A DNA stretch of 64,000 bases from Ascidiella aspersa. Lineage: Eukaryota. The stretch spans positions 9,672,001-9,736,000 of the forward strand of contig OZ004612.1 in NCBI GenBank assembly GCA_963924565.1. Direction: 5' to 3'. This document shows positions 31,727 to 62,006 of the stretch, one piece after another (positions within the stretch are counted from its first letter, which is position 1; every line of letters starts with the position of its first letter). The position numbers and the translations under genes are program-made. The notes beneath the pieces are model-generated. The model had not been told where the DNA came from. It worked only from the letters and a program-made list of their open reading frames with translations, and did not search any database.

Positions 31727-32296
31727 TCAGTTACGCGCCAAACATGACGCCGTCTCACCGCCGTAATAATAGTCGGATATGGAGCCATAGCTTTGTCTCC
31801 GAAAGTCGCTTTTAAGCTTTTCGCACAGCAGTGTTTCCAGCCCCGGGTTCGATAAAATCTGCTTTGTCCTTTCGCTTGGGTTCAACCTCCAATTGAAGTA
31901 CTCCCGATAAGCGGTGTCGTTCTTTGCGAGATAAAGAAGATACTCGGCCAGGTGAGCTGGAGAAGTAAAGTCTTCCGCGTGAATGAAAGACCCAGAGGGA
32001 GCCAATCGAGTAACGTCAGCTTTGGAGGGACCCCAGACCACCGGGACTCTCCCTAACTTGATGGCGTTCTTCCAGAACTTTTCAGTCATGTAATCTTCGC
32101 AGTGAAGCGAGTTTTCGAACGAGAGGTAAAACTTGTAGGAGCCAAGCGTTACCGGAGGAAGTTTTCCGAATTCCTCCTTGTTCTGGAAGCACGCGCCGTA
32201 TCGATGAACCGGAAGTCCAGCTTGGATGAGGTCCTCCACATATTTCATTCTATTCCTTGATCCAGGAAGAAGGTCGCAGTTGCTCACCACCCAGAG
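31727..32296 (-). CDS. FucT-A last exon (GDP-fucose-binding domain, alpha-1,3 motif)
   Basis: TAG acceptor at 32298-32297; LWVVSNC...CLARN*. Confidence 0.95.
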   Translation of the reverse strand, partial: LWVVSNCDLLPGSRNRMKYVEDLIQAGLPVHRYGACFQNKEEFGKLPPVTLGSYKFYLSFENSLHCEDYMTEKFWKNAIKLGRVPVVWGPSKADVTRLAPSGSFIHAEDFTSPAHLAEYLLYLAKNDTAYREYFNWRLNPSERTKQILSNPGLETLLCEKLKSDFRRQSYGSISDYYYGGETASCLARN

Positions 32297-35200
32297 CTAA
32301 AACATAAAATGATTTTCAACAAAAAGAATAAATCCTCAAAACTAGAGCATTCGTTGGAACGTGTCAGTCCTGGAAAGGTATGTGCAAATTCGGGAAATTA
32401 GATATACAATTATTCGACACTAATTGCAAAGGCTGCCAACTCGCTTTGAAACTTTTTTCGACCTGGCTTAGAAAATAGTTGAATCACAAGTTTAACTCCA
32501 GCCCAAAAACTAAATTCGCCTCGTCCCAAATCAGGAACCCGGTACCGACTCCGCAGCCCTGATTTATAATTCCAAGTAGTTAGTTTTGTATTAGTATAGC
32601 TAAACCTATCATGGTCTTAAGAAGTACAGGCAACGAGAACGCGATTGCTGGTTAAATTTAGACGTAAATGTTTGATAAGATATCTAGCAGCCCATACACA
32701 CTAGTCGTACTCGTACGCATGGCAGTTACAGTTTCCTCAATCGGTCAGCACTGAAGTAACTCAATTTATTTCGTATTTAATGCGTTATCTGCTGGAAAAA
32801 CCAAGTACGCTTGACCTGACAAATCTAAACAACGTTAAAGTCCGTACCGCAATATTAGTCTTGTTTTTTAACATTTCTTCCAATTCTTTTTTTCCGTTTT
32901 CAAGCACTCCGAAGGCGTTGACGGAATAGGATGCCGATACGTCGGAGTCCGTCTTGTAGGTCATGGTCCAGTTAATGAAGTGTCCGTCGAATTCGCGCAT
33001 GCTTCTTCCTTCTTCGTTTTGTACGTAGCTCGGAGTTTCAATGATCTCAAACGCGAACACTTGGTCGGGATGTCTGCAAGTTATTAAGCTAATTTTAGTC
33101 CCTAGTTTCCAGTGTTGTAAACAAATCATTTTGAAATGACTTGAGTCCCAGTCAAGTCATTCGTAAAATAACTTAAGTCCAAGTCAAGTCTTTTTGAATA
33201 AATAAAAAGTCAAGTCCCAGTCAAGTCATAATTAGAGCAAGTCAACTTCAAGTCCAGCCCTTGTCAAAAAAATAAAACTTTAAATTATGAAAACCGGCAA
33301 ACTCCTCCGATTATTATAAGCAACTCAAGTGAAAAATAACATAAAACCAGCCTATTACAAGCATTTTTTTTTATGTGCAAAGATTGGGATGAATAACGCA
33401 ATTTTATAAATAATTGCTTAATTAAAACAATTTATTTCCAAGTGATTTGTCCAAATGACTTAAGTCAAGTCAAGTCATTTGCCCAAAAGACCTAAGTCAA
33501 GTCAAGTTATTTTGCCCAAAAGGCTTAAGTCAAGTCAAGACATTTAAAAACAGTGACTTAAGTGCACTAAAGTCAAGTCATTGACTAAAATCATTACAAC
33601 ACTGATAGTTTCCCAAAGTTAGGCAAACCAAGGGCCTGGTTTATTTTATTTTAAATTTTAGAGATTATTACGATAAGGTTTTCATGCAGTATATCGTACG
33701 AAACCATGCGCTTTGCCCCTTTATTTTGCCAATTTTTTAATAACTGTAAGCCGATATTTGATGACGAAACATTTTACGTGGTAAAAACTTGTTAACTTAT
33801 TTTTTGTTCTTGAATGCAGTGAAATGTCAACAATATTAGGTCTCACTAATTCTAGATTCGACAAATACTAAGTCTCACTAATTCTACTTATTAAAACACT
33901 GCGGGTAAATCAGTGGAATCATGATGCTCAACAGACTTCGGGTGAATAACTGTTTGCTTTGTTTAGATCTCTCGTGACAATATTTATAGTTTGAAGATAA
34001 AATATTTCACCTGTAGTGTTTCCACGGCATACGCTCCTCATCCAAGGCGCTGTAATGGAAAACGACTGCACTGGCTGTTTTTAGCTGGTCTCGGTCGTAC
34101 GTGAATCGACAGCCGTTTATTACAGTGCCCTCTGGGATACCGTGCTGTACGCGTCCGTGTGGGTGGCGCCACAGCAGTATGGTGTGCTCATCTTGCGTCA
34201 ATTTAACAAAGTCTCTACACAAAAAGATTGTCTGTTTGTTGCAAGCAAAACAATAATTCATTGCTTGGCCTGTACAGCGCTACAAAATGCTCCACAGAGC
34301 AAGTTTATATGTTGTACTTGTTTGATAAAACCTTCTACAAAAATTAAAAATTGACAGTGAGCGTTTTGTCTTATTAAATATGGTTAACTGCCATTGAATC
34401 TGTCCTTTTTCTGTTTCAACCAGCAGGTTAGTTTTGCTTTCGTGAGACACCGTTACTGCAGTCACGGTACACTCTCTAAAGACATATGTTTTAAACAGAC
34501 TGAAAAGTCTAGCAAAAAGTCACATAATTATTTGCCTTAGTTTACTGTTTTTTTTTCTTCATAAACCATTCCTAATTATTTTGCGGGCAACATGAGGTTT
34601 ACCTTAACTTTTGCCCGTTATTTATAGATCAGTTGAAAATGGCGATAGTTCGATTATACAAAACTTGTTTTAAATTTACGCATTACAAACCATTGAAGAC
34701 TCACCCGTCGTATTTTAATCTCTGTCCGGTTGTCTTTTCTGGGAGACTGCAAGACAAAACGTTTTGATGTCAAACGTGGATTAACTGCCTTTATTCAAAA
34801 TAACGATTTTGACTGACTGTTTTTTTTCATATAAGGACATAACGAATGCGAAAGAAAAAAAGAGGCGAGATAAAACACATGTCAAAAAGCGATAATTTAG
34901 CAGGGGGGCATTAAAATACTGGGGGTTCAGGGTTCCTTGTACTGAGCATTAAAATAGTCCTGCGCGCTTGCAGAGAAAGTAATTAATTTTATTCTTAGTG
35001 GCAATCAGATGTTTCCATTTCTGGACCGAATTGACCATACTGAGGAACGTATTAAAATTCGGCACGCGTCCAGCGTACTTACAAGTTACAACGGTAAATA
35101 AAACGTGCACACAACAACAAACAGTTCAACAGGGTTTCAGACTGATTCACCACAATACCAAACAACATATGAACTGAATCAGTTGTCCAACCCATGGTAA

Positions 35201-36409
35201 CTGGAGCACAGTGATAATAAAAGACCAGTGTGTATGGCCATATAAAACAACGACAAACGATTTCTAAAAAATACAACAAAAATAATAATTTAGAGCTAGA
35301 TATTAGTTTTACTGAGAATAATTTTAATCCAAAACATTTCAATAATTCTTAGTGCTGGGCATCTCAAAGTTTGTGTGGTGCATCTAAATCAGAATTGAAA
35401 CATACTGGGATGGAAAGCAAAGGTTTATGATAAAACATTTGGTAAAGTTTAAATTTTAAATATGTGTTTCTTATGTAAATAATTCAAGCAGCATTTATTT
35501 ACTCTGGGTTTAGCATCATTCAACTTACAATGGCAATGTCAGGGTCTTGGACTTGAGTTGAGTGAGTTTTGACCTGTACTCTTGCGGTTGACTTGACTCG
35601 GACCTAGTTTATTCAATAAAAGTTAATATCACTGCACACTAGAATATGTATCGCAGAGAATCAAAACGAGGAAGCAGTTAAATGATCGCAGTGGAATTCA
35701 CTCCGCTATGTATAGATTGTTGCTACAGAATGTTTTGCGGAGGCTTTCGGGCACCACATGATAAAAGACAAGTCAAACAGGCGCTATCATGGTGGATCGT
35801 AAGACGTTTTAAAGCTCTTTTGGGTACTAATTTAGACCATATTACCACAGATTCAAATTCAATTTATTTTTGTGCATGTTTGCAAACATCGAAAAACAAA
35901 ACAACTTACAGATCAAACACAAGGACAGCGAAAGGACCTTTCGGTCATCGAGTACCACAGTTACGTCACATCATCATTACATGCTTTGTCGTTTGTGCCT
36001 AGTAGTCCGTAGGATTACAAACTAAGGAAGTTTTAGAATGACATTCCAGGTTTTCTCACAAAACGTTGTCAGTTTACATAATATTCTAGGGTAAAATCAG
36101 TTTAATTTAGTCGTTATTTTATGTTGTTTCTGTATGGATTTGTATCCCTTTAATGTTAGACAGTCGGCATGACATATTTCGGTGCTTTTTGTTTCCAATT
36201 GCAACTTTAGTAAACGCGGTTTAACTGAAACACTATACTCTATATTATTTTCCAAACTATGCGATACCATGAGCACCGTAAATTTACACTTACCTTACAG
36301 TTTCGGAGAGACGTGTTCTGTTTCCGAAACCAATATTCCAAATGACGAGGAGCAGACAAACTGCCGAAAACAAAACTGCGAGCGAGAAGCAACGCATGCT
36401 TCGCAACAT
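31727..36409 (-). CDS. Alpha-1,3-fucosyltransferase (CAZy GT10), paralog A; 5 coding exons, 385 aa type II membrane protein
   Basis: Exons 36409-36294, 34746-34705, 34214-34011, 33073-32848, 32296-31727 with GT-AG ends and phases 2,2,2,0. N-terminal TM (MLRSMRCFSLAVLFSAVCLLLVIW). GT10 motifs: ILLW, C..T.DR, VVFH, ETP, NWTMTYKTDSD, WVVSNC, YKFYLSFENSLHCEDYMTEKFWKNA, VPVVWGP, SFIHAEDF, YREYFNWR. Confidence 0.92.
32848..33073 (-). CDS. FucT-A exon 4 (HPDQVFAFEIIETPS...NWTMTYKTDSD)
   Basis: CAG acceptor, GCG|GTACGG donor, 226 nt, same size as paralog B exon. Confidence 0.93.
33110..33604. mobile_element. hAT-type MITE with internal (AAGTC)n arrays, in FucT-A intron
   Basis: TIR CAGTGTTGTAA/TTACAACACTG; 8-bp TSD CTAGTTTC/ATAGTTTC. 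Confidence 0.88.
34011..34214 (-). CDS. FucT-A exon 3 (ILLWRHPHG...CRFTYDR...VVFHY)
   Basis: TAG acceptor, AG|GTGAAA donor, 204 nt. Confidence 0.93.
34705..34746 (-). CDS. FucT-A 42-nt stem micro-exon (LPEKTTGQRLKYDG)
   Basis: TTGCAG acceptor, CGG|GTGAGT donor; same size, phase and YDG ending as the paralog B micro-exon. Confidence 0.8.
36294..36409 (-). CDS. FucT-A first coding exon (cytoplasmic tail + TM anchor)
   Basis: ATG, hydrophobic segment, AAG|GTAAGT donor in phase 2. Confidence 0.8.
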
Positions 36410-36751
36410 TGTGCTTCTAAAGTTAACAAAGTTAAATCTCTTATGCTCTTGTGACTATAAAACAACAGGTAGGTTATTTACGTTACTAGAGCTACCATTG
36501 ATCAATGTCTCCACATCCTACATGACCGCTTTAAAGGGTGTGGGTGCGAACCACAATAGAAACAGTACTTACAGGAACTTACGAACGTTGAATAAATTTA
36601 ACTTTGAACGTGCGCGATCTGGACTCCACAAGTGAACAGTAAAATACTGCTGCTTTAGCATAAAATGCCACCACTTGAATAGCGAAATTAATTAAATTTT
36701 GTGACAACACGCTTAAAACACGACACAAAAATACAGGAAATTCTAATCAAT

Positions 36752-36933
36752 TGACAAAGCGCTTCCAGCGACCTGCTTGGCAATTTGATACAAACGCACA
36801 GACGTCATAACCGGCCAGACTGAATAAGCGATCCAGCGCGACTGACAAAGCGCTTCCAGCGACTGGCTTGGCAATTTGAAACAAACGCACAGACGTCATA
36901 ACCGGCCAGACTGAATAAGCGATCCAGCGCGAC
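36752..36933. repeat. 91-bp tandem duplication upstream of FucT-A
   Basis: TGACAAAGCGCTTCCAGCGAC...GATCCAGCGCGAC twice, with ~3 mismatches. Confidence 0.9.
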
Positions 36934-37327
36934 AAGCTGTTGTAGTAGAGAGCAATATTTATTACCAACTAATGAATTTGTATATTACGTGATGACGTCC
37001 ATAGTGGCCCATGACTTCCATCCTGTTTTTTTCAACTTTTTGAAAAAAATAATTAATAAACCAATAATAACCAAAAAAAAAATTGTTAGAAAAAAACAAT
37101 AAAAAATAAATTAAGAAAATTAAAAAAAAAAAAAAACAATAAAAAAATATTTAAAAAAAGTACGTGGCCCAGGAATGTCATTTCTATTTAATGCGCATTA
37201 CGGTCGGACGGTCGGAACATCACTGCCATCATAGAATACTTAAACATATATGCAATACTATATTGTATTCTGTTTAACTTCAAAGCAAGCGCATGTTACT
37301 ACTGCGTTGTGGCAGATTTATTTGTTA

Positions 37328-40300
37328 CTAGACGAAATTCCCGGCGTTGCCCAGATTAAGTAGGGTATATACCAGTTTAATTTCAACTGATAAAGGTCTG
37401 ATGTAGTTGTACCGGCTATGTAAATTAAAGCGCGATAGTTGGCGAAATTAACATGAAATTTGCTTGGTTACACAAAATGAAACAATCCATTCTTCATCAC
37501 TATTGCATATTACGTTATTGTCGGGCAGGTTAGATAATGAGGTAGTAACGCATACGGCCTTGGGTTTTACTTTTATCAACACTATGTCCTATGTAGCCTT
37601 AAAAGACTTTCTTTAACAACGATGCACTATAACAGGGGTCGGCAACCTTTTTCTAGTCGCGGGCCTAAACCAAACTCAAAAAGATCTCTTCGGGCCGCAC
37701 ATAATGATAACTAAGAATTGTGTTATTAACATGTTAGAACAACTGTGAATAAGCCGGAAATCGGATCGTTTTTGCACTTAAAAACGTGTTTAATTACATT
37801 TTAAGAGGCAGTAAATTGTTGGCGCAAAGCGCGAAAAAAAGCGTTTGTTTGATTTAAAATTCGAGTTCACACGTCGTGATCCATACTTCTAATAAAAAGT
37901 GTAATACAACTACTTTGAGGGGACGCGATAACATCTAAAGTTAATCTAGCTGAGTGTTTTTTAACCTTTTAAGTTAGGGCATACCTGGCGAGCGAAGCAA
38001 GCGCGATTTTTTGGGGTGTACCCAGTGATGAGATTCAGCCGGTTCGCACCGGTTCTCTAGAACCGTCTCGCGGAATTTTATGAGATCAGCGAACCGGTTA
38101 GCATTACTGGTTACTGTCAATGGACTGGATTTTTGCGTCTTATTCCATACAACATTGATTTTTGAGCTCCAAGTAGTACCTATATACGTGTTTGTTTTTT
38201 TTCAAAATGTGCAATGGTCAAGGTCACACGTTACTGTACATTGTGTTACATTTTTATAATTAAAGTATTTTTCCTTTTGTAATTGTTTATCTGAAAATGT
38301 AATTGTTGCGTCATAAGTATAAGACGAATGCTGCTTTTTATTAGTGTGGCTGTTAGCAGCGATGGGATTCAGCCGGTTCTCAGTTTGCAACATTTGCTGA
38401 AACGTTGGGTTGCATCCTGTTCTTGCAACTACTTTAATTATTTCCCGAAAAATATGACTTTTTGTAACAGAACCGGCTAAAATATATGACATTTGGGCCG
38501 TAGGTTGCCGACCCCTGGATTAGAACATATATGCACATACAACGTACAATAAACCCACATTTTTTGCGTAATGCGCAAATAGACTTTTAAATCAAAGTAA
38601 CACCCCACAGCCTGTGTGGAAGTGGCATTAATGGAATGGCGTGTTTAAATATGTGACTTATCTGCGTGGCTCTAAAGATTTAATTCTTGGTCTCTGTAAA
38701 TTGCCATTAAATTTTTCATTTGGTTAAAACATTGTAAAATTAACGTATTAAAAGCAGTTTTGTGTCTGAAATAGGTCACTGAAGGTAAGGCGCTAACGCG
38801 CTCTTACCATTTAATCACTAATCACGTGTTACCAGCATTGTATAATCTTCTTCCTGAAGCCTCTATATGTTACAGCTGATAATTTAAAAAAAAATACATT
38901 TAACATCAAACCAAATTGCAACGCTGTGTGTTTTTTTAAATGAAGCTAATAAAAACACAACCATGGCTAAAGACGTCTCGCATATTTTACGTAACGAAAA
39001 CCCGTGACATATGTCGATCAAAAATTATTAACAAACGTGAAAAAGTCGTAGCACCAATTGTTTAAATCGCGCGAAATTCAAGCAAATGGGTAATCCCGGT
39101 GGGTAGCATACTGCATCCAACGAAAAAATCCCGTTTGAAAAAACAATTTGCTTAGTGTTCAAACCGCTACACACAATATTTTGCAAACTTAGGCCAAATG
39201 TTGCGTAGTTGCTGTACGTGTCTGTGTAAGTGTCTTAATACCTCATGAAAGAATTCTAATGAAACTGCTGCAAAAAACGCAATATTTTGCGAACTCTGCC
39301 AAGAATTGCGTGGATAACACATTATAAGGAGCTATTAGGCTTAAGCCTTAATCACTGTCACAATATTGTTGGTAAGGTTTGTTGTAGATATCCGTGCAGG
39401 TTTCCTGATGTTCATTCAAAGTATGTTTATAAAAGTGAAAAATGGTAAACCTTTGCACTAAACGCCAAATTAAGCTGCGTCCAACGTCAGAAAAATCCGT
39501 AACCCTTGCTTTTTACGTAATTCCGGTACCATACTGCTTCCAACGTAAGTAAAATCTCGCTTGAAACTGAAAATTGGCTACTATTAAAACCGCTGCAAGG
39601 ACTAAATAGCCAACGGCTAAGCACGTCAAACATCTTTTAAGTTAAATTCATTAAAATTTATTTTTGATTAGGGCAATATAGCTAATTTGAGTTTTTATGA
39701 AACGCAGGTAATTGCGCTTAAACAAAAGGTGTGGCGCGGTTACGTTAAGAGGTTTACCATATACCACGCGCGCGCCCAGGCCAGATTGGAAACTTTGGAT
39801 ATTGTGCGGGGGAGATGTTTTGCAGCTGAAAAAATGCGCGGCCGAAAATAAAATTTCGATGCGCGGCTGAAAATAAACAATCAGGCTACCGAACGTTGTA
39901 AGTTGCGAAATTATATTAAACTTACAGCGTTCATAGACTACTTTTGCGCAATTTTTGGTTGGTGTGCGGGCGCAGCTAAATATTTAAAAAGGTTGATAGT
40001 GTAGCATTCAATATGCAATATTACTCGATATTGCCTAATTTGACGTCACTATACACGTGACCGTTGTCCACTGATGCGTGACCAAAACGCCGAACTGTGC
40101 GTTTTCAGCGCTTCGCAGGGGATTCTATATGATGCATTATATTATATATGTCTTATAGACTAGCGTTAAAAAATGTTATGCAACTTCAGTATGCGGCCCG
40201 GCAATTTTTTTTGTGCTTGTTTAGTTTCATACAGTAGTTTGCGCGGCTGAAGTTTTGTGCGTTTGCTCGAGTCAGATTTGCGCGGCTGAGCACATTTTGT

Positions 40301-40503
40301 ATAAAATGCGCGGCTGTGACCGCGGCTGAAAGTGCTACTGGCCAAACTTTCCAACCTGGCGCCCAGGAAGAGGCGAGCACACGGCGGGAGTCGCCGCTCC
40401 TTTTGTTAGCCGACTACCCCTTGCTCTACCAGCGACCGACCGGCGAACATCTTGCCACACACACACACACACATCTCACAAATCTTTTCTTTTATTATGT
40501 AGA
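37328..40503 (-). mobile_element. Probable non-autonomous Helitron (or composite) with nested MITEs
   Basis: On the minus strand: 5' A|TCTACATAATAAAAG followed by (TG)n; 3' hairpin CTGGGCAACGCCGGG, 8 nt, then CTAG|T; AT target, no TSD. Pairing of the two ends is inferred. Confidence 0.55.
37633..38517. mobile_element. hAT/Charlie-like MITE (TIR CAGGGGTCGGCAACC) with nested fragments of another element
   Basis: 15-bp perfect TIRs; 5' ~380 bp homologous to 51471-51835; nested CAG(T/C)GATG(A/G)GATTCAGCCGGTTC ends at ~38023 and ~38358; TSD poorly matched. Confidence 0.8.
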
Positions 40504-41771
40504 TACGCATTCTGCGTCGAAGCAATGCTGATCGCACCCCAGTGTTACATCATAATTGGCATTTCGTTTTGGCTTCATAAGTCATCGTAATTGGACTTGA
40601 AGTCAGTTCCTTTTGGGATACACCAGAGTTCCAAGTGGGACTCACAAGAGTTACTTACGAGCTCACTAAAGTATCTTAACGGAGACCGATCAATAACCTT
40701 CTTAGCTATCGACATATACTGTTAACAGCGATGATATTTGCAAGTGGCATCTGCTATATGCTAACTTACTTCGCCGATCTATAGAAACAGGTTGTTCGTT
40801 CACTTGTGGTTGCCTCGCGAGTAAGATACGCAACCTGAAAGGAGTCTTAACGAAAACGTCAACTAGAATGCTCCTCTGTTAAAAAAAGTTTCAACAACTC
40901 AATTCGAACCCACACTGTTCACCGAATGAACAGAGTTGACCCGGTCATAATTCAATATTTAATCCAAGTCAAGCCATTTGAAAACAATTATTTAGGTGCA
41001 TAGGTCAAGTCATCAACTGAAGTCTCAACACTTCTCATCTTACTACAATAGCTTGACTTCGATTACATATTCTGGATAAATGACTTACTTTGAACTTAAG
41101 TCATAGTGTCAAATAACTTGGGTTAAAAAAAATTGATTTCAACACTGCGCATCTTACTACAATGTAATATGCCGTACTTTCGCCTTGTGTTCGTAAAGAT
41201 GTATTGCGATCTGCGTAAAACATACTCAAGCAAGATAAGATTCGCGCAAAAGCGAAAATAATTTCCGGTGCTAAAACAAACAAAAATATATTATATGTAG
41301 TTTAGGGTTAAATGCCTAGATCCGCCACTGTAAAGATGTAGGTATTATTTTTGTCATTGCACCTTTTTCTTGGATATTTGATTTTAGGTTGAAATATTAC
41401 AAGGCGCCTTGGTGCCGAAACCACTGCTGTATCATAATGTAAAACAAAGCATGAAAAGAAAAACGTTTACGCGCGAAGCGCGAAAACTTTTATATTTACA
41501 TACAGTTTAGGTTGACAAAAATATAGTTCGACAGGCTCTCAGGACCACATTTGGCACGTGGGCCTTCCCAAGCTAAGCAAATTTATAAAATCTACTCCAC
41601 ACAAACTTTAAATGAACTGTCACGCGGCCTACAACTAAATTACCACACTAAGCCATTTAAAAGTAACTCGCGGCAACAAAAAATGGCTCTGCGGCCCACA
41701 GTTTGCTGACCACTGCACTATACGATAGAATCGCAAATCCGATTTGAAATTGGCGCAGAAAATGATAAAGC

Positions 41772-42059
41772 GAATGTTAAACTGTAAAAACATTAGACTT
41801 AAAACATTTCACAAAGCAAACACAGAAAACTAAACCTGCAGCAGTAAAATTGTTGTTCAAGCACAAAGTACAATAAGCCACCTTTGAAAAACTATTCAAC
41901 AAACAAAGGCATTTTTAGAAAATACTCAAGTCAATTACAAAGACATTTTCCAAAGACAAGTAAATTTGACCCTTCATTAACTTTCAGTAAACGATGTCAG
42001 AAGCTTTTTCATTAAGTTTTCTTCTGCTACACAACAAAATATATCTCAACCGAAATATC
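41772..42059 (+). repeat. ~290-bp dispersed direct repeat, copy 1
   Basis: Aligns by eye to 43596-43893 (GAATGTTAAACTGT...CACAAAGCAAACACAGAAAAC...CAGTAAACGATGTCAGAAGCTT...CCGAAATATC). Confidence 0.8.
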
Positions 42060-43595
42060 TGAGATTTCAAATTTGCGCAGAAAATGCTAAGAAAAAAATG
42101 TTTTAAGGAAAATATTGCGGACTGGATTCTTGGCGGGGTGCGTAGTGAACCGTGTACGACACGTTAAACATCACTGCTCTAGAGCAGTGCTCAGCAGCCT
42201 TAATTCACTTGTGGAAAACCAACAGAGTTAAAATTCGGCTTCCCTACGAAATATGTGAATATCGATAATGCACAAAAAAACAAATATCCCAGGCTGCCCA
42301 GAGATAGAAGGAGTGATTTGTGATTAAACGCACCGAAGGCGCTAAAAACTTTAACATGACGTTTAACATTCATTTATCTCTGATTTTACGGTTGTAGAGT
42401 CTTCCTAAATAGCTTCAGACGGCCAATAGGGGACTCGAGTTATAAGTGCGAAAGTAGAACAAATCAACGTCGAAATAACACACAGTTCGGAAGAAGACCC
42501 AAATTATATAGATACCTAATGGTCGTAATAACGTCTAACTCAGAATAAGTCCTAAAACCCGTCAGAAGTCAAAGAAAATTTTACACGTCTAATTTTGCGG
42601 TTTAGCTGACTGTTGAATATATCTAAAGCGTGCAGTCAAAGTCCTAAAAATTTTACTCCTTTTGTAATAGCAGATTAGAGAACACACAACTTTTAATATA
42701 ATTGGTAGATAAAACTGGATATTGGTGCTTTGTATATTTTAACTTCAGTTCTTTTTCGAAACAGCTCGCAAGACTAATCATATTATCACAAAATAATAGT
42801 ATATTTACAATGATATTTGCTAATAGTATATTTAGAATGATGTTGTATGGGTTTCGAGCGTATGGTTAATCTCTGTTTCCACTTTGGTGTAAAGTTTGAA
42901 AACAATTTTGTATATTTATACCCTTGTTAGTTCCTGGTACCTGAGGCGGAACACACAGCGGTTGCGGAGCATTGTCTACTTCTAGACGCTCTAGACTGCT
43001 AGATTGACAGTGACTCATTTGTTTTTTGCTTCCTAGCTTGTTAAACGGAAATTCCCGCAAGGGTTCGACTGGTAACAACAACTTTCTTCAGGCTACTTGA
43101 TAATAATGTTACCACGCTATGTAGCATTTTGTGACGTTCATGTCTGAATTCTCCAAAAACATGTCGAAGACCTTTCGTCGCCAATAGACAAGGTTTGAAA
43201 CCAATCTGAGTGCGTGTTCTGAACTTCTGAGACCCATATAGGGGCCGCGTTTTACTGCCGTACCCACCAAAACCTGAAGTAACATGCGCCAAAAAGTATA
43301 CTGTTGCTGCAAGGCATGGTTTCAATTACACAGGCTAAGAACAAGTTTTAAACAAAGATATTAGCTCGTCCAGGTTTCATGTAGTCGATAAGACTGAAGG
43401 TACCTGCGTACGTTGTAGAACTTGATCAGTTTTATATACAAGTAATTTCTGCACGACTGAAATAAGTAAAGTCCTTTTGTTACACATAAAAAATAAATAA
43501 AAACTAATGAGTTTAAGCTAGGGTCGTCTGTTGTCCAAGTTTAATCTTTAGCCTAACCCTAAAAAGTCAATTTTGACGTGATTTCAATCAGGTGT

Positions 43596-43893
43596 GAATG
43601 TTAAACTGTTAAATTACTAGAATTGACCGACTCTAAGCAACATTTCGCACACAAAGCAAACACAGAAAACCAAACATGTAGCAAAACTGTTTTTCAAGGA
43701 CCGGTACAGAGCATAATAAGCCACTTTTAAAAACTACTTAACTAAAAAGGGCATTTGTAGAAAATACCCGAGTCAATAAGGCATTTTCCAAAGAAAAGTA
43801 ATTTTGACCCTTAATTTTCAGTAAACGATGTCAGAAGCTTGTTTATTAAATTTCCTTGTGCTACACAACAAAATATATCTGAACCGAAATATC
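43596..43893 (+). repeat. ~300-bp dispersed direct repeat, copy 2
   Basis: See 41772-42059. Confidence 0.8.
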
Positions 43894-44168
43894 ATGTGCT
43901 GGATAATTAATTACAAAAAATAGCAAGTGTGCCTACATAAACTTAGGCAAAAAGACCATTGAATCTTTTCCACTGCCAAATGAAGACAAATCACCACTAT
44001 ATAACTATATCCTCGCAAAATGTACGCTTAATGAATACCAACAGGCCTAAACTTAGTGTTGGCACGTAAAGCAGTGGCCTGATGAAAGATCTCTGCGCAA
44101 CAATGGGCATACGAAGGCATTACTCTGACAAAAAATACGAGGCATATTTTCAACAGAAGAATATACAC

Positions 44169-45488: not shown

Positions 45489-45503
45489 ATATAGACTATA
45501 GGT

Positions 45504-45915
45504 CAGGGATGGCGAACCACTGACCCGCGGGCCACAAAGTGACCCACCAGATGACCCACTTGTCTTTCTAGAAATACCGAAATCTTGTCAATCATTTTTA
45601 AGAGATAATAATTGTAAACAAATAATTCTTTGTTAGATAGAAGTATATAGTATACAGCCAACAGTTTGAATCAGGGCTGCCTAATCTGTGGGTCGTGCAA
45701 AAGGGTAACTAGGGGTGACGAGTAGGCCTACTTTAATTGTACTCCCATAATAATTGCTGCAGCATTTGTTAACTATTTATGTTCTTAATATACGTGGCAA
45801 TCAGCAAAGTTTCACATAAAATTAGCATATAGTCAAATATATGACCCACTTGTGCATTTTGTAAGGATAAATGTCGTGTTTGTGACCCGCGCAATGAAAA
45901 GGTTCGCCATCCCTG
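45504..45915. mobile_element. hAT/Charlie-like MITE
   Basis: Perfect TIR CAGGGATGGCGAACC/GGTTCGCCATCCCTG; flanks CTATAGGT/CTATAGAC; TGACCC motifs. Confidence 0.88.
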
Positions 45916-45927
45916 CTATAGACTATA

Positions 45928-46222
45928 GCGGCTCTTCAACCAGTTTCATGCGGCTCTTACGTTCAGGTTATATTTGAGTTTCAATATTTAGTGAAAAAAA
46001 ATCACGCGTTTTGCGCTAAATTTGTTTAACTTTCCTGCAGAGTGCCTTAATAATCGCTAAATGTAGCCTACACAATATTGTTAGTGTGCAACATTTATAA
46101 TAATCCTATACCCTTAGTAAGGCATTTGTAAGTTTAGATCTGTACTTGTGAAAGGTGTGGCTCTTTGCGGTTAACCAGTAAAAAAATGCGGCTCTTGGTC
46201 TCTAATTGGTTGGCCACCCCTG
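45928..46222. mobile_element. 5'-truncated hAT MITE (GCGGCTCTT motifs)
   Basis: Right end GGTTGGCCACCCCTG followed by CTATAGAA. Confidence 0.65.
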
Positions 46223-49200
46223 CTATAGAACATTTGGCATGGAAAACTTATATTGATATAGCCCAGACCGCGACCCATTAATCATGTTTGTGTGGTTCTT
46301 AGGTCCATGTTGCATTTCTTGTTTTTTGTTTTTACGATGCCCAGTAATAATTCTCGTGTGCTATATTTTTATTCTAATTTAACCACTTCAATGCATTTTT
46401 TTATTTTTAATATGCCTTGGCCCGTTTTGAGAAAAACTTCCATAAAAGGCGATGGCGTTTATTTCAAAAGTCAGTCAGTGTAAATAGAAAATCATATGTC
46501 GCTTACACAATATTGTAAATGTGCACATTTACAACAAATCTAGTAGGCTAGAGCAAAGGTACATGTTAGTAAAGGAAGAAACAGGGTGATATTTATTTCT
46601 GTCCATGTTAAAGTTAGTAAACCAAAGAAGAAATGTGGTTCCTGTTCTCTGACTGGTTGACCGCCCCTGTAAACGCGGTTTGCTCAACTCAATTGTAAAA
46701 GGGCCTCAAAACGCTGAGAATATTCTTGTGAAAAACGATAAAAAAAAAAACAGTTCAATCCATGTTAACCTCTATACTTTTGTAGATTCTTTTTCATCAG
46801 ACCATAATTACATGTTTTAAAATTAGTGCATTCCCTATAAAAAGAGGAGGTTTGTTGGTAGAAACTTACCAATCAATGTATCAAGCATTTCGAGTGAAAC
46901 TCATGCCCTTTTCCTAGAAAACCGACTAACAAAACATTCTAAAATCACGCACTATGATGTTTTTTTTTAATTTTGTCTCATCATTTGGTATTGCAACGAG
47001 CCCGGTATTTTAATGTTAAATTACTTGATAGGATGTTTCATATGTAGACTGATATTGGTCAGTTATAGGAAGGCACTCGGTGCATTTTGAATAAATTCCA
47101 GATATATGAGGCAAAACTGTTTCACAAAATATTGATGAGTCGAGTCAGAACCAGGATTCTAGTTTGGGTTGGTAGTTTAGAAGATGATGTCATAAAGTTA
47201 GGTGAGAACGTAACTTCATACAAAATTGTTTAAAGTAATAACTGTTCTGGAACGAACTGGCGTGCACATATGCAAGTAAACTCAGGCTAATCGTATGGCC
47301 CGACTTGTTTCCTGAAGGGCAAACTGAGTTTGTTTAGTTTAAACTAGAGGTTACAGTTCTGCTCCCGCTAAGATTGAATCCGACTCGATTTGACTTTGCT
47401 AAGGTTGCGTGTTCCAACAGCTTAGCCACAGCAATCTATTAAACGTATCTGGTTTTATTGAATAACAGTAGAACGGCAATCAACATACAGAAATAGGGAA
47501 AGGTCCAGGGTCTAGAATTACGGTCCAGCATAATAGCTTCTGTCTGTTACATTATGTTAGTTGAATGGGTTAGAATTATTTAGCAGAGGCGGGTTAACGT
47601 GTTTTATGGTCATTGGGTCACGTCATAAAGTTTGGCTTTAAAACTTAGTTTTGAATAATAGCAACAAATAATGGAATGTCCACCACACTTCCACTCCTGG
47701 ATTCGCCTCTGCTTATGATAATATAGTATTCAACCCTTGATATATACGCTCTTTTTATTGTATTCTAAGTGCCTTGGTTGTGGTTTGATTGTCATATGGT
47801 TGTACTATGGACAACTTTATTGTTTATTTTGTTTTATACAGGGTTTTACAACCTTGTAAACCGACGGATGAAAAATGTGTATCATGAACTAGCGGAACTA
47901 GCCCATGGGCCAAATATTTGTACGCAAACTGTAGACCGGGCGCAAACGCTTCGCATCGAGAAGATTAACCTTAACTAAAGTGCTTGCAAACTAGGTCTTT
48001 TCCCAAGGTGTTCTTTAGTCAGTAGTCAGTACGCCTAGATGAGATTTCGTGAACCCTATTGTTTATGTGAAAGCTCAAACACGTCCGTTGAACAAATGCA
48101 AACTTCGCAGCCACGGGATTTGCTGGGACCATGTACTGAACCAATTTTAAATAAGCCACAACATATCGAACAGAATTAGTGGCGTTATTCTTGATATATG
48201 TGCTGATAAAAGCTTGGCAAATAAACTGTACGGTTATCATGTATTTTTAAAGAGGCAATAAAACGACTCGTCTCCCGGAGTCCGGTCAAAATAGTTAACC
48301 AGTCCGATTTTTGGCTAAATAAGCGATTTCGTCGATTCCCGAGTCCGGCTCTGACATTACACTCAGAATTTCACCCATTTACCTAACTAAAACATGGATA
48401 TTAAGCAACCAGCACTTACAGGGGTGTTATATAACTCATACCTCGTCCACTCACAATATACATGATTTTTTGACGTTTTTGCATCTGCAGGACTTATTTG
48501 TCTCATGAAATGGGATTTAGAAGTCTTAAGATGAACTTTAATCTATCCTTTAACATACCACAGCATTTAACTTAAAATGTCAGAACAGAAAGTGGTTTAT
48601 TTTGCATTAAAAAAATGCTACTCAAGTGAACCATTGGTCCCCACCCACGGGACAGTTGGTTCAAGGGTTGGAGACAATTGATTTTAGAACATCTTGTTGA
48701 CGAAGAACTCAAACACCGTCCATTACAATTGCAATTTTCATCTGCAATAATTGCTAATTTATATTTACTACTATATAAGGTCTTGTACTTTAAATCACAT
48801 TTCCGTATTATGACCCGTAAGAAGCAATTTTGACGTCATCACTATCGTCTGTTTGTTTGTTGATACGTTTTAGACTACGACCAACCAGTTTAGAGATGCC
48901 GTAGGAAATTTGTTTACCTCTGTGATTTGTTTGTTCGGTAAGCGAACAATACTGATTTACTAATCCACTGGTCCCCACCGGGTTGTGAACCACAGGACCC
49001 ATGGCGGCAATTTACATTTGGCGTGACCTGAGTTGAAACTTAGACTAGCTTTTCAGGTGTACTATTTTTGCCATCAGCTAACTAAAATGCAATAAGAATT
49101 TTTCCTTTTAAACCACAATATACAACACTTTGCTCTAGTGCAAAAAAGCCCTTTAGATCTTCAGCATTGATCTTAATTAGTCCTAGTTACATCACACCAA

Positions 49201-49849
49201 AATCTATACAGCAGTATACCTACACAATACACGGCATCACACAGTTAAATATGCAGGAAGGAAGGCTAGCAAAATCTTGCCAGCCTTCTGGTGACAAGCA
49301 TTTTTGGCCTAAATTCTTCGGTTTTTGGTCGCACCCCTATACTCAAATGATGTGTTCGCCTAAGGAATGTACAAACCTTGCCATGTTTTGGCGATAAACA
49401 AGGCTATTAATAAGTAAATTAGACAAGAAAACATTGCGCTGAAGGCCAAAATTTATTGTGACATTAAGTCATTAACAAATACATAAGGGGCATGTAAAGG
49501 TACAACCTGGGGTCTTGTACATGTCTGCTTTTCTTACTCTAAAAATGTTATATAGATAAGCTGTTTTCAGGCGAACTTGTGTGAATACATGCAGTTCAAA
49601 ACCAGATTGAAAATCACGAAAAAATATTCTTTGGATAAATTAGGTTAAATTTCCAATTTATATTGAAATAAGGATATTTATAATAAAATTTAGTAGAAAC
49701 TGTCACAGTCACAGTGCAACATGGCACATTGCCACACAGTATGCATATTATCTCTGGGATAGATAGAGTAAAACCAGGCTAAAATTCGCGCGAAGCGTAA
49801 AAAATTTTTGCGTTTCCGTATTGAAAACAACCAAAAATATACTTTAGGC

Positions 49850-50724
49850 CAGACCTGGGCAACATACGGCCCGCGGGCCGGATCCGGCCCGCCAAGCAGT
49901 TCTATCCGGCCCGCGGCGTATTGTACTTAAAATACATCATAGGCTCAGTTTCTATATGTTTGGTTGTATCGTAAACAGGGACGGATCTAGTCATGATCCC
50001 GCCAAATTCGATTTTAGCCTGTTTTAAATACTAAAACGAAAATTGTTTAAATACTAAAACGAAAATTGAAAATTGAATCTATAGTGTCTTTGTCGTGTGT
50101 TCCACGCGATTTTTCGGCAACTTTACAGACAAATAGCGTCCTCTGCATTGTGGCACTCTCTCCAACGAAAGTTGAACAAACTTAGCCTAAATACTTACAT
50201 ATTTTTAGCGCATCGAAAGTATTCCATCTTTAAAATATGAGCGAAATACCGACTGTTGTCTTAACTCTAAATATTACACTTGTTAACCTAATTTAGTTAC
50301 TGCCATGTTGTGCAGTTCTTCCGATTTATATCGCATTTGCAATATGGCCGTTGTACCGCACGTAACACATCGGCAACTTGAAGCTTTATAAAGCCCAAAA
50401 AACATAGCAAGTTTTTTTTGAATGAAATTTTTCGTATTTTAATCTAAACTTTTGGGTCAACGCGCCCCACAACTTGAAAAAAACATTGTCGCAATTGTTT
50501 TTGCGCTTCGCGTGACGTCTTGTGGCCTTCTTTAAATTCGAGTTAAATTGCACATATTCGCATAACTCTAAACGTAATAATAAACTCGTTAGCTTATTCG
50601 TTTTATTCCGTCAGAGTTTCTGACGTCATTTTGCGTGTATTTTAGATCCTATTTGTGATCCGGCCCGCCACAACATTTTATGTTTGTCATGCGGCCCGCG
50701 GCTAAAAATAATTGCCCACCCCTG
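49850..50724. mobile_element. hAT/Charlie-like MITE
   Basis: Ends CAGACCTGGGCAA/TTGCCCACCCCTG, CGGCCCGCGGGCCGGATCCGGCCCG subterminal palindrome, TSD CTTTAGGC/CCTTAGGG. Confidence 0.82.
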
Positions 50725-51470
50725 CCTTAGGGCGAGAAAGATAGCCTGGTATATCCTTAATATGCCGATGCAAATGTTATACCTGTAGGCCCTACATTTA
50801 ACAGGAATGGGGAATTCAACTTAATATAAGAGTACTTGCCAAATCAAAGTAAAACTGCAAACACATAACAATTCTATGATCAAAATTGTGTACTTTTTTA
50901 AAATAACAAACAATCTATATGCCTAACACTAGCTTTTTATCACTTACCAAAGTGCTTCACACTACCGTAACTTTTTTCGAAATGGCACAACAAAATCAAT
51001 TTCCGACAATTGTAGTTGTAATGTTATTACATATTTCTGCTTTTTAAAAATAGAAGTAAGATATATGTGTAGAAAGAACCGCAAGGTATTTTGTAAATTG
51101 GATCTTAAAAAATAATTTTTTTCCAAGAAAAATTTTCAAAACAATTTTTTTTGTCTTAAATTTTTTTTTGCACCAAATTTCTTCGGTTTTCTAGCTGATT
51201 CTTCGGCCGACATAATCGCCAAGTCACCAACATTCTGCCATACTGCAGGAAGGCCAGCAAAAACTTCTCTATGCGTACTGATGCTATACATGCCTTCGCA
51301 GAAACACGTTGGAAAATCGAGGCAGCGCATTTTATGAAGACTTTTACGTGGTCGGATCGCCAAAGCCTTTTTGGAAGTCTGTGAGGTGTTTGTCCTACTT
51401 GGTCGCTGGTAGGAATCTGCTGTACATCCAAATTCATTTTGGCTGTGGTCCGGTATGGCTTCGTATATAC

Positions 51471-52045
51471 CAGGGGTCGGCAACCTTTTTCTAGTCGCGG
51501 GCCCAAACCAAACTCAGAAAGGTCCCTGCGGGCCGCACAAAATGCTAACTAAGAATTGTGTTTTTAAAATGTTAGAACAACTGTGAATCAAGAGGGCCTC
51601 GAATATTTTTTGCAATTAAAAACGTGTTTAATTACAGTTACAGAGGCAGTAAAGTGTTGGCGCAAAGCGCGAAAAAAGGTTTGGTTTAAAATTGGAGTTT
51701 ACACGTCGACTCGTCATTCATACTGCTAATGAAAAGTCTAATAAACTACTTTGAGGGGAACGCAATAACATTTAAAGATAATCTAGCCGAGAGTTTGTTA
51801 ACAGTTTTAAGTCAAGGCGGACCAGGCGAGCGAAAGTTTTTATTACATTGCCGAAAATTTACCGTTTTTCCGCGACGTACTTGGCAGCTTTCCACGGCGC
51901 AATGGTAAAGAATTGCTGGTTAAGTTGAAAAGACAGCATCACGTAGTTAAAATAGTCAAAAAGTATTTGAAATGAACTCTTTTCTAATTTTTCAAAGAGG
52001 CGGCGGGCCGGATCCGGCCCGCGGGCCGTAGGTTGCCGACCCCTG
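51471..52045. mobile_element. hAT/Charlie-like MITE (same family as 37633-38517)
   Basis: TIR CAGGGGTCGGCAACC/GGTTGCCGACCCCTG; flanks GTATATAC/GCATATGC. Confidence 0.88.
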
Positions 52046-52356
52046 GCATATGCCATCACATCTCTTTGCGTAACAACTCTCGTATGTCGGCTGTATTAGA
52101 TTATAATTAATTACGGATTAACTCTGAAAAAACAACAAAACAATTGCACTAAATCGAGTTGTTGTTTTTAGGGTATAACTCATACAGTACACGTTATGAT
52201 TACGTTTTTGTTGTTCGTTGCGACTTCACAGTCCATCGGAACAATTTGCAACACGAACAATACAATACCACATGAACGAACCAGAAGTGCAACAAAATAG
52301 GAAACGCTGCATTTGAAGCACAGTATAGGAATCGTAAGACGGGAGAACGTTTTTCA

Positions 52357-53007
52357 TCAGGACTTATGAAAGTAACGTAACGCAACAAAGCACACAGCAT
52401 AAAACGTCCAGCGCAAGACGGCTAACGCAAGAGAGAACCCGTTAGGCGCCAAACATTCTTTCGTTTCACCACCGTAATAATAGTCGGATATTGAACGATA
52501 GCTTTGCTTTCGAAAGCCGCCTTTAAGCTTTTCGCACAGCAGTGTTTCCAGCCCCGGGTTCGATAAAATTTGCTTTGTCCTTTCGCTTGGGTTCAACCTC
52601 CAATTGAAGTACTCCCGATAAGCGGTGTCGTTCTTTGCGAGATAAAGAAGATACTCGGCCAGGTGAGCTGGAGAAGTAAAGTCTTCCGCGTGAATGAAAG
52701 ACCCAGAGGGAGCCAATCGAGTAACGTCAGCTTTGGAGGGACCCCAGACCACCGGGACTCTCCCTAACTTGATGGCGTTCTTCCAGAACTTTTCAGTCAT
52801 GTAATCCTCGCAGTGAAGCGAGTTTTCGAACGAGAGGTAAAACTTGTAGGAGCCAAGTGTTTCCGGAGGAAGTTTTCCGAATTCCTTCTTGTTGTTGAAG
52901 CACGCGCCGTAGCGATGAACCGGAAGTCCAGCTTGGATGAGGTCCTTCACATACTTCATCCTCATCCTTGATCCGGGAAGAAGGTCGCAGTTGCTCACTA
53001 CCCAAAG
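52357..53007 (-). CDS. FucT-B last exon
   Basis: TAG acceptor; LWVVSNC...YKFYLSFENS...; 27-aa C-terminal extension relative to A. Confidence 0.95.
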   Translation of the reverse strand, partial: LWVVSNCDLLPGSRMRMKYVKDLIQAGLPVHRYGACFNNKKEFGKLPPETLGSYKFYLSFENSLHCEDYMTEKFWKNAIKLGRVPVVWGPSKADVTRLAPSGSFIHAEDFTSPAHLAEYLLYLAKNDTAYREYFNWRLNPSERTKQILSNPGLETLLCEKLKGGFRKQSYRSISDYYYGGETKECLAPNGFSLALAVLRWTFYAVCFVALRYFHKS

Positions 53008-56000
53008 CTAAAAAACAAATAAAGCTTAAATATAGAATTGCGCTGAATTTGCAGCGCTAACCAGGTATAATTGCACAGCCACACCACACTTTTTCCTTCA
53101 GGTATTTTATTCTCTCTTTTTCAAATGTTGGTTGTCAATATAGAATCAGTAGATTAAGTTTTGTTTAGCTTGTTAACCAATAATTAGTAACACCAAACCC
53201 CGATTTGTAATCTTAAAATAAATAACTAATTTAAACATGTGGTTAGAAATGCAATACTGTACAAATAAACAAATATTCGAAAGTGTGTGCATGACTTAAC
53301 GCTTCTATAACGATCTAAAAAATAGAAACCTTACCGCAATATTCAACTTGTTTTTTAATAGGTCTTCCACTCCAGCTTTTCCTTTTTCTAGAACTTGATT
53401 AGCTGCACTGGAGTAGGACGCAAATATATCGGAGTCTGTTTTGTAAGTCACGGTCCAGTTGATAAAATGTCCGTCGAAGTTGCGCATGTTTCTGTCTTCC
53501 ACATTTTGCACGTAGCTTGGCGTTTCCGTGACATAAAAGGCGAACACTTGGTCAGGGTTTCTGCCATAAAAACGCAATGAGTCAAATAAGCAAAAATCGA
53601 GGAAAGCGTCGCGTTTCCAAAAAAAGATTTTTTTTACAGGCCCCACTGACCTGAATATTATTAATAAATTGGGCGGTGTCCCCGATTAAAACACTTTTAT
53701 TTCAAATCCGAATTTAACTTGGTAAAAAATCGATTTAAGCCACAATCGATTCAAATGAAACTAATAGCGAATTAGGAAAAAGCCAGGACGCGACGTGTAA
53801 TTTACATGGAAGCATTTAACCCAAATTAAATGCAAACCCTAGACATATCAAAAGACAAAATTTAAAAACACATAAAATCAAGGCATTTTAAGCTGAGCAC
53901 TAAAGGCACTGATAAATATCACCATAAATATGGCCTTCTTAGAATCTCGTATTTTAGGTTCTTTGTAAGTGATATTTAGAAGTGAAAGAATATTAAATCC
54001 CCGCAACGAACGGGGTACATTTCATACAAATGTTCAAACAAACAGGAGGTTTTTAACAACTTGTATATATTTTGTAGGAGCTTTAAAAAGTATTCTATCT
54101 CGCAGTACAGACCGCAAAGACTATGATATAAAGCGAAATTGGTGTAAGATATAAAAATACCGATTCTAACTCACTTAAGTCACAAATCATTGCCCGTGTG
54201 TGATTCCCTTAAGACCTAAGTGTTGCGCGGAAAGATAACAATTTGCATATCAAGCTTCTGTTGATATTATTTCATGATGACTTTAGTCAGTTAGTTAAAC
54301 AGAGCAGCTAACGCTAGAACTCACGTTATTCTAAATAAATCTTAACAACGTTCAAATTAATAAAAAAATAATAAATAAATCTTAATAACGTTAAAATTAT
54401 TAACATTTAAACGTTATACTGTAAGTGAGAAGTTATGGACGTACTTTTTTAAAATTATGGTTGATCGCATTTAGAGTAACATGTATTGTTTGTTTTAGTG
54501 AAATGTAGTTTTGATTTGTTCAGAAAATGCGACGAAAATATCAATTAATTGTGAAACTCAACCTAAATAATAATAGTGTATAATATTGAAACTACATTTG
54601 GAACAAGTCACAGACAAAATACGACTGCAAGTTGAGGAAAACGTTCCTCTATTTAGGTGGAAAGTATCGTAAGACCATAACCTGTAGTGTTTCCACGGCA
54701 TACGCTCCTCATCCAAGGCGCTGTAATGGAAAAACACTGCACTGGCTGTTTTTAGCTGGTCTCGGTCGTACGTGAATCGACAGCCGTTTATTACAGTGCC
54801 CTCTGGGATACCGTCCTGTACGCGTCCGTGGGGATGGCGCCACAGCAGTATGGTGTGCTCATCTTGCGTCCATTTGATGGGATCCCTACACGCAAGAACG
54901 ACACGTAAATAATGCATAAGGGTGCTTTGAGAGACAAGGGCACTCTCAATGTGTCGCCACAGCCTTTCTGATTCCACGTCCATCTGTTGTCGTGTGATAA
55001 TATCGCTTATTGCGGTCTGCCTTTTACTGAGCATTTTGTCATACAATAAACAGAAAACTAAGTAACACTTATAATTCCTTCAGCGTTATTTGATTTTAGG
55101 TCTTAAATGAAGTACTATACCTTTTGCTTGGTTATTTACATTATATTGGCTCACATAATGAATATATATAGTCATAAATAATATGACCTTATATATTCAG
55201 TTCACTTAAATAGGATTGCTCACCCGTCGTAGATCACTTTGTTGTCAGAAGATTTTAGTCGAACGCTGCAACAAAGTACAATGTTTTATATATATATATA
55301 GGCCTACTATATATAAAGGGCGTATTTGGGGAACACTTATAAACCAATCAACCATTTTGTCAACTCTAAGGTAAAAACCAGCGAAACAGTTTAACTTTAT
55401 TTTTTGATAAATGAAATAGAGGCTTATGTTTGGAGTTTAAAAAGGTTGACCAGTAAACATGACGTAAAATTGCAAACCACTGAACTGACAATAAATCATA
55501 ATATGTTGTCGTTTGAGTAAGATTAATTAATCGATTACAAAAATACCCCACTAGCCAAATTAAAGAAAATTGACCAAAAGCTTTGACAAATTTTTAACCT
55601 AACTTGTCGTTTTGCATTGACAACGTTTTGTGCTCTACTCGTTCACCAGGGACATCGCCATCGATCTGATACGAACATATTGATCGAAAATGCTGGCTTG
55701 AAAAAATAAGGGCAAATAGCACCACATGACAGCGTTGCAATGACTTAAGTCAATGAAAATGCACTTAAATGCACTTAAGTCACTGTTTTTAAATGACATG
55801 ACTTGACTTAAGTCTTTTGAAAAAATGACTTGGGTTAAAATAAAGAAAATATAAGTATTTTTTTATAAAATTCAGCCATTTGTCCAAATTTTTGCACAAA
55901 AAACAAATGGCTTGCTATATGTTCTGTTTTCGTTAGTTTTTAGTTCAGTTATTGTTCATAATCATGCGAGTTTAAATTTTTTTAAAGTTTGCGGTTTATT

Positions 56001-61789: not shown

Positions 61790-62006
61790 AATAGCTCAAC
61801 TTGAAAATTAAATCTTAAATGAAAACACTTAATTTCAACCTCAATCATTAGACTCAATGACTTACGTCCAAGTCAAGTCCTTTGTCTAAAATAGTTAAGT
61901 CAAGTCAAGTCATGTTACCACAACGACTTAAGTCAAGTAAAGTCATTTGAAAACAGTGACTTAAATGCACCTAAATCAAGTCACTGGTTTAAACATTACA
62001 ACACTG
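61790..62006. mobile_element. Truncated copy of the AAGTC-MITE
   Basis: AAGTCAAGTC arrays and right TIR ATTACAACACTG; left end not found. Confidence 0.75.

Follow-up and report, generated by a model that had tools for sequence, protein, structure and literature searches.

Two neighbouring fucosyltransferase genes of the ascidian Ascidiella aspersa, referred to here as A and B, are nearly identical over parts of their coding sequence and strongly diverged over the exon that separates those parts. The question that this locus raises is how such a patchwork came about, and whether the divergent exon escaped homogenisation passively or was held apart by selection. The window, a stretch of 64,000 nt on contig C6 of the 309-Mb genome, was analysed for this purpose, with gene models drawn from open frames and splice signals.

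Two GT10 genes and the divergence between them

A (36409 to 31727) and B (56555 to 52357) both lie on the minus strand, and each consists of five exons with open frames and GT-AG borders. In A, a hydrophobic open frame with a phase-2 GT donor forms exon 1 (36294..36409), which holds the start codon and a predicted type II membrane anchor. It is followed by a 42-nt micro-exon of the stem (34705..34746; AG/GT borders, frame kept), exon 3 with the first half of the GT10 N-terminal domain (34011..34214), exon 4 with the catalytic Glu (A133) and two acceptor loops (32848..33073), and exon 5 with the GT10 C-terminal donor-binding domain (31727..32296). The exons of B are, in the same order, 56428..56555 (start codon and predicted membrane anchor, from hydropathy and splice signals), a 42-nt micro-exon at 55224..55265 (splice signals), and 54682..54885, 53335..53560 and 52357..53007 (splice signals and Pfam). 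A further candidate for the transmembrane (TM) exon of B, around 57310, was rejected because no frame there is free of stops. The frame of B's last exon runs 27 codons beyond the position of A's stop, and this extension (52357-52440) encodes a hydrophobic tail that could be a second membrane anchor or neutral read-through.

The C-terminal profile PF00852 (Glyco_transf_10) matches A and B at 169.5 and 169.6 bits (cut-off 23.9), and PF17039 (Glyco_tran_10_N) matches exons 3 and 4 of A and B at 32.9-38.7 bits each (cut-off 28.7). Both proteins find their best relatives in ascidian fucosyltransferases, with 65% for Phallusia, 61% for Ciona and 58% for Clavelina. By their domains, A and B are members of the GT10 fucosyltransferases; as aligned, they lack two features of the vertebrate FUT3-7/9 subfamily. 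Among the four cysteines conserved there, which we take to be Cys82, Cys91, Cys335 and Cys338, the equivalents of Cys91 and Cys338 are present and the alignment, read by eye, shows no counterpart of Cys82 or Cys335; the motif V-X2-H-H-(W/R)-(D/E) is absent, since A, B and the paralogs C and D have Ser where Arg or Trp111 is expected. A and B are also two residues shorter than C before the last conserved Cys region.

RNA reads in the 6% of run X8 that was used are few; they fall, in the expected orientation, on exons 3 and 5, and at two sites 4 of 4 carry letters of the B/C type. These X8 reads gave no depth on A's exon 4 or exon 1, and no splice joint was seen in RNA reads at gene A, where an intronic repeat swamped the joint signal. 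A high-copy repeat of short AAGTC-type units occupies GT10 introns at 33110-33604, 55730-56193 and 61767-62006, with a depth several hundred times single copy. Upstream in the window, at about 9800-30370 on the plus strand, a gene stands tail to tail with A; its exons encode coiled coils and, at the C terminus, a calponin-homology domain (PF00307), and it is presumably cytospin/SPECC1-like. A 91-bp tandem duplication lies upstream of A (36752-36933), and two pairs of dispersed repeats are present (37628-37996 with 51466-51834; 41772-42059 with 43596-43893). No GT10 remnants were found between A and B or between B and C.

Compared without gaps, 31811-32146 of A and 52522-52857 of B (tract 1, within exon 5) differ at 2 of 336 nt, at 31859 and 32096, both synonymous. 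Positions 34011-34199 and 54682-54870 (tract 2, in exon 3) differ at 5 of 189 nt, three synonymous and two non-synonymous, and exon 4 differs at 59 of 226 nt. These counts agree exactly with the two near-identical tracts and the divergent exon between them that the first-pass annotation had described. Exon 4 has 25.5 synonymous differences over 44.8 sites and 33.5 non-synonymous differences over 180.2 sites (dS 1.07, dN 0.21), and its dN/dS of 0.20 (p 7e-7), with 22 residue differences, indicates that it is under net purifying selection. The per-exon comparison of dS that the annotation had proposed gives values far from uniform: 0.08 in the exon 3 tract, 1.07 in exon 4, 0.25 in the first 150 nt of exon 5, 0.03 in tract 1 and 0.57 at the end of exon 5. 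Taken by whole exon, with no tract chosen by eye, silent differences number 4/59, 18/51 and 13/171 in exons 3, 4 and 5 (chi-square p 3.3e-7). Shuffles of the 279 silent sites gave 0/2000 for the longest A-B run, 0/2000 for the sum of squared runs and 1/2000 for the maximum chi-square; among six control pairs, the same shuffles gave a low count for A-D alone (22/2000, on one of the three statistics). GC3 is about equal in A's tracts and A's exon 4 (0.57-0.62) and lower in B's unconverted parts (0.40-0.49).

Outside the tracts, the four intron pairs and 3' flanks yielded one 24-nt match in total and are otherwise unalignable, the TM exons align poorly, and the micro-exons have mainly their last ~9 nt in common, much as had been noted beforehand. 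The annotation also had the tracts stop near exon borders in an exon-by-exon mosaic. This is true of tract 2, whose identity reaches the donor GT and ends 15 nt short of the acceptor, but not of tract 1, which is internal to the 570-nt last exon, beginning 150 nt in and ending 84 nt before the exon's end. The last exon therefore has three strata, and the mosaic is not exon by exon. In silent divergence, exon 4 does not significantly exceed the 3' flank of tract 1 (18/51 vs 4/20, p 0.26) and exceeds the 5' flank only marginally (7/43, p 0.06); the 5' flank differs from tract 1 at p 0.002. Taken together, the silent-site contrast, the permutations and the unalignable introns uphold an old duplication homogenised in two separate tracts, and interlocus gene conversion between A and B is almost certainly real. 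This is a known kind of process, as regional conversion in tandem paralogs, including fucosyltransferases, is well known.

Tracts of 190-340 nt at 97-99% identity could also be produced if assembly collapse or polishing had copied one gene's tracts onto the other, a possibility that the annotation had left to be settled by reads. Four runs were mapped, on gene A only and not on gene B, which leaves this explanation some room. After repeat bins and a mixed one had been set aside, depth was compared between four tract bins, one of which also takes reads from C, and 17 single-copy bins. In raw run X7 the tract bins have a depth of 9.4 against a single-copy median of 5.8 (1.6-fold, p 0.009), and in the contigs of X1 a depth of 364 against 112 (about 3-fold, p 0.002); raised depth over both tracts is contrary to a collapse. 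A 282-nt contig of X1 (depth 280; A-only contigs 61-139) matches 31860-32141 without difference; it starts immediately beyond the A/B difference at 31859 and ends 30 nt past the point where C joins. This contig also spans 32096, a site of difference between A and B in the assembly, so that the B of X1 likely has the A letter at that site. Only B/C letters are found at 32252-32253 in X1, even in a contig that reaches 280 nt into the intron of A itself, and the same letters stand in 11 of 12 reads of X7; unphased and taken from summary tables, they suggest that alleles vary in tract content. At several sites all reads of X7 carry a letter other than that of the assembly (10/10, 12/12), so that this run is likely from another individual, and run X4, labelled as another organism, is near-identical to gene A at low depth. 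With the same pattern also present on other chromosomes, an assembly origin is extremely improbable. The tracts are not a collapse artefact and both copies are real, as depth and contig structure at gene A indicate.

Older tracts and other GT10 clusters

The account involving two genes, with which the annotation had worked, is not supported as it stands, because a third paralog, C, carries an older tract in common with A and B. C, D and E follow A and B beyond the window. Comparison of C with A and B shows saturation (pS 0.66-0.98) apart from residues 197-246, where pS among the three is 0.19-0.28; from pS and a site list, this older tract is placed at 32112..32296 in A and 52823-53007 in B. 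Shuffles for clustering gave, per 2000, counts of 0, 0 and 5 for A-C and 138, 7 and 0 for B-C. In C the stretch forms a separate exon, and similarity stops ~15 nt before a C-specific intron. On these patterns of divergence, the cluster has at least two ages of tract. A's exon 1 aligns with the first exon of C and not with that of B, and trees of exon 3 place A/B with D, at a support of 86-93 for protein and 70/89 for DNA, a grouping that counts as a lead. A thus has a first exon (36294-36409) like C's (L018-L019) and catalytic exons like B's, and its chimerism may include older layers. In exon 4, C and the paralogs on C1 (36.9 Mb) and C3 (4.1 Mb; L025-L026) have an additional intron; another, in exon 5, is found in C and the C3 paralog, and D has one elsewhere. 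A and B are without two introns that are present in C, which are also absent from D and the C7 paralog.

A profile search of the genome with PF00852 gave 63 matches, some of them two exons of one gene, which corresponds to roughly 50 genes. Codons of 24 gene regions were mapped to one profile and 23 pairs were listed. Seven clustered and nine control pairs were tested, the within-cluster pairs of C4 and C9 having been picked after viewing the profile map, and the patterns of the other clusters are those of the assembly alone. For A-B, silent differences in the exon-4 equivalent and the core are 15/36 and 1/81. The same contrast is seen in C4c-C4d (12/32 vs 2/83), C9a-C9b (14/27 vs 3/72), C9a-C9d (14/33 vs 7/75), C7a-C7b (9/33 vs 2/81) and, for two genes 2.1 Mb apart, C8a-C8b (10/27 vs 13/78). 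A counter-example is C6x-C6y, in which exon 4 is not spared (1/38 vs 2/79). A near-identical donor-binding core is therefore present in three further GT10 clusters and weakly in a fourth, and unlinked pairs are without it. In eight of the nine control pairs the exon-4 equivalent does not differ from the core (e.g., 12/20 vs 30/56; 15/19 vs 34/53), the borderline pair being C6x-C6E (p 0.048), and divergence at these core sites amounts to 35-67% in controls. The core is not slow by nature, since the controls are flat while the clustered pairs show a trough.

Exon 3 is also unconverted in most of the recurring pairs, and in C7 the tract begins mid-exon. By these silent-site profiles, the constant feature across clusters is the trough over a converted donor-binding core, rather than a spared exon 4 or an alternation of exons. 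The exact A-B pattern, with exon 3 converted and exon 4 not, is found again in C9a-C9d (4/31 vs 14/33, p 0.012), where the residues of exon 4 differ at 4/43 only. Pairs at 23.8 Mb on C3 and 15.3 Mb on C9 have uniformly low divergence and are recent block duplicates. Four GT10 copies with in-frame stops (L071-L078, C2 27.6-27.7 Mb) are likely pseudogenes, and the copies at C2 27.5-27.7 Mb were left out of the cluster analysis. GT10 paralogs of Clavelina (P0003-P0010) have segment-wise uneven protein identity (e.g., 77/95/90/94/96%), and some of these may be alleles from different assemblies.

Acceptor loops and residue 132

The first-pass annotation had inferred that the donor core is shared and the acceptor side spared. 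For human FUT9, a review gives acceptor loops at 69-81, 136-153, 157-169 and 326-330 and contacts at Phe73, Gln75, Leu136, Glu137, His141, Tyr168, Phe329 and Trp330, plus Trp/Arg111 (PMC12717137). Positions were mapped from P0001 to FUT9 (PDB 8d0o) and on to A and B, in a numbering deduced as chain index + 37, which is consistent with all the named residues. On this mapping through P0001 the catalytic Glu (FUT9 Glu137) is A133/B137 and the Asn153 sequon is A155/B159; together with the GT10 domains and the Tyr168 equivalent, they are common to FUT9 (PDB 8d0o; PMC12717137) and both ascidian genes. The two middle loops lie within exon 4. Tract 2, which corresponds to positions 2-61 of the 109 in the Pfam N-terminal domain, covers loop 69-81 and position 111, that is, the equivalents of Phe73, Gln75 and Arg111, and its two non-synonymous changes align to Asp78 and Leu107. 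Loop 326-330, with Phe329/Trp330, likely falls in tract 1, where the alignment is loose and either reading is inside the tract. Two of the four acceptor loops thus map to homogenised tracts, one of these by loose alignment. What stands of the inference is the shared donor core and an exon 4 with the catalytic Glu motif and two of the acceptor loops; what is not supported is an acceptor side spared as a whole.

Seven of the nine acceptor-related positions of FUT9 could be placed by alignment, and A and B differ at the Leu136 equivalent alone, which adjoins the catalytic Glu (codon A132, Ile, 33040..33042; Thr in B, 53527-53529). This residue is the one datum bearing on diversified acceptor specificity, of which it is suggestive. 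A and B both have His (34159 and 54830) at the conserved aromatic position of Phe73, where C and D have Trp, and an unusual predicted acceptor pocket is likely common to the two. The acceptor of A/B is likely not predictable from FUT9, because Phe73, Gln75, Arg111, Leu136 and His141 are replaced in A/B by His, Arg, Ser, Ile/Thr and Tyr.

Across the genome, the Leu136 column is polymorphic in five of six clusters, which holds for no other of the 218 columns with scores in at least five clusters; the one cluster that departs from this has a homogenised exon 4. With A-B, the source of the site, left out, the probability of four or more of five is 0.006 under equal rates and 0.021 under family site rates, and 0.06 to 0.33 exon-4 columns (0.33 with site rates) would be expected at this level by chance. 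At residue 132 a single member out of four departs from the rest in C4 and in C9, and pairs with the same residue there still have a divergent exon 4 (C4d-C4e 12/36, C9b-C9d 16/29). Selection on acceptor specificity is, on these alignments, a testable lead.

Possible passive escape or selection, and known systems

A and B are old tandem GT10 paralogs in which exon 3 and the donor core of exon 5 were likely homogenised through repeated conversion at the DNA level. As the introns no longer align, each exon would act as a separate homology island. The core protein changes least, so that long identical runs would stay, copying would be costless and conversion would sustain itself, while exon 4 has probably drifted beyond the similarity needed for conversion and would now diverge at the background rate. 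A homology threshold for conversion is stated in two papers (PMC3966223, as general; PMC3924837). The escape of exon 4 may, on balance, have been mostly passive, and this is more likely than selection because the introns give no homology on either side, unlike in the opsins, and because thresholds are described as general (PMC3966223). The end of tract 2 at the donor GT and that of C's tract ~15 nt before the C-specific intron agree with passive escape; against it, exon 4, at 226 nt, has at least the length of the converted exon 3 (204 nt).

The rival reading in which conversion is real and selection holds exon 4 apart, as copies must differ at the acceptor site beside the catalytic Glu, is a substantial possibility, if the less probable one. 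Both the C9a-C9d pattern and the recurrence of residue 132 in five of six clusters favour it, the latter at low probability even without A-B. It is weakened by the chance expectation under site rates, by C4 and C9 with their single differing members and same-residue pairs that diverge anyway, by the low dN/dS of exon 4, by the lone difference among the seven placed positions with Phe329/Trp330 inside the identical tract 1, and by Clavelina P0003/P0008, which are more divergent in exon 3 (77%) than in exon 4 (95%). That the core is the most conserved protein segment might instead point to a recent duplication with fast change of exon 4 and introns, or to strong silent-site constraint in the tracts; such a history is scarcely credible given that fourfold sites differ at 11/20 in exon 4 and 0/50 in tract 1, that the same core sites diverge freely in controls, and that the introns are unalignable, unlike those of the block duplicates on C3 and C9. 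Exon-only tracts would also be expected if reverse-transcribed mRNA had served as the template of conversion, in line with tracts that hold no intron sequence and with the two introns that A and B lack relative to C. This, too, is highly improbable: a cDNA tract would cross junctions, but identity ends at the exon 3/4 junction, C retains both introns flanking its converted exon, and D and the C7 paralog are also without the two introns. The per-exon trees that had been suggested showed no significant conflict among A. aspersa paralogs, with no sister-species DNA included; none of 13 AU tests (6 protein, 7 DNA; p 0.06-0.45) rejected the constrained clade, and the trees therefore support neither conversion nor its direction.

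Passive escape thus remains the preferred reading for exon 4. A bolder and rather doubtful proposal is that ascidian GT10 clusters are constant/variable cassettes, in which conversion would keep one GDP-fucose-binding core per cluster, selection would separate the acceptor site, and the residue before the catalytic Glu would be a recurrent specificity switch. If this is true, the acceptor determinants of alpha-1,3/4-fucosyltransferases would be charted naturally by the pattern of conversion over about 50 paralogs. By itself, the A-B pair is nothing unusual; the gain comes from replication across independent GT10 clusters in one genome. Several clusters with a core-centred tract make passive escape testable against selection, with one residue to mutate. 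In addition, tunicate GT10 trees based on the C-terminal domain would sort the genes by cluster and not by age.

A literature search returned no report of conversion among ascidian GT10 genes within its coverage, which left out most subscription papers and all supplements. The nearest counterparts are FUT1/FUT2/Sec1, the mammalian alpha-1,2-fucosyltransferases, likewise tandem paralogs with tracts in parts of the catalytic domain and involving three genes in leporids; there, however, it is mostly the N-terminal part of this alpha-1,2 family that is converted (PMC4398370), whereas in A/B it is the C-terminal donor core, in several independent clusters and with introns as barriers. In the clustered protocadherins (PMC1852091), the C-terminal region is likewise homogenised within and divergent between subclusters, and the presumed specificity region is seldom converted. 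Those genes differ in being adhesion proteins with one large exon and reported positive selection on the spared domains, while the spared exon of A/B has a dN/dS of 0.2. Red/green opsins (PMC3924837) and copepod GOT1 (PMC3728101) also show an island of divergence amid conversion, read as a possible target of selection. In the opsins the flanking introns are homogenised (PMC3924837), which isolates selection as the cause, whereas the introns of A and B are unalignable and keep passive escape plausible.
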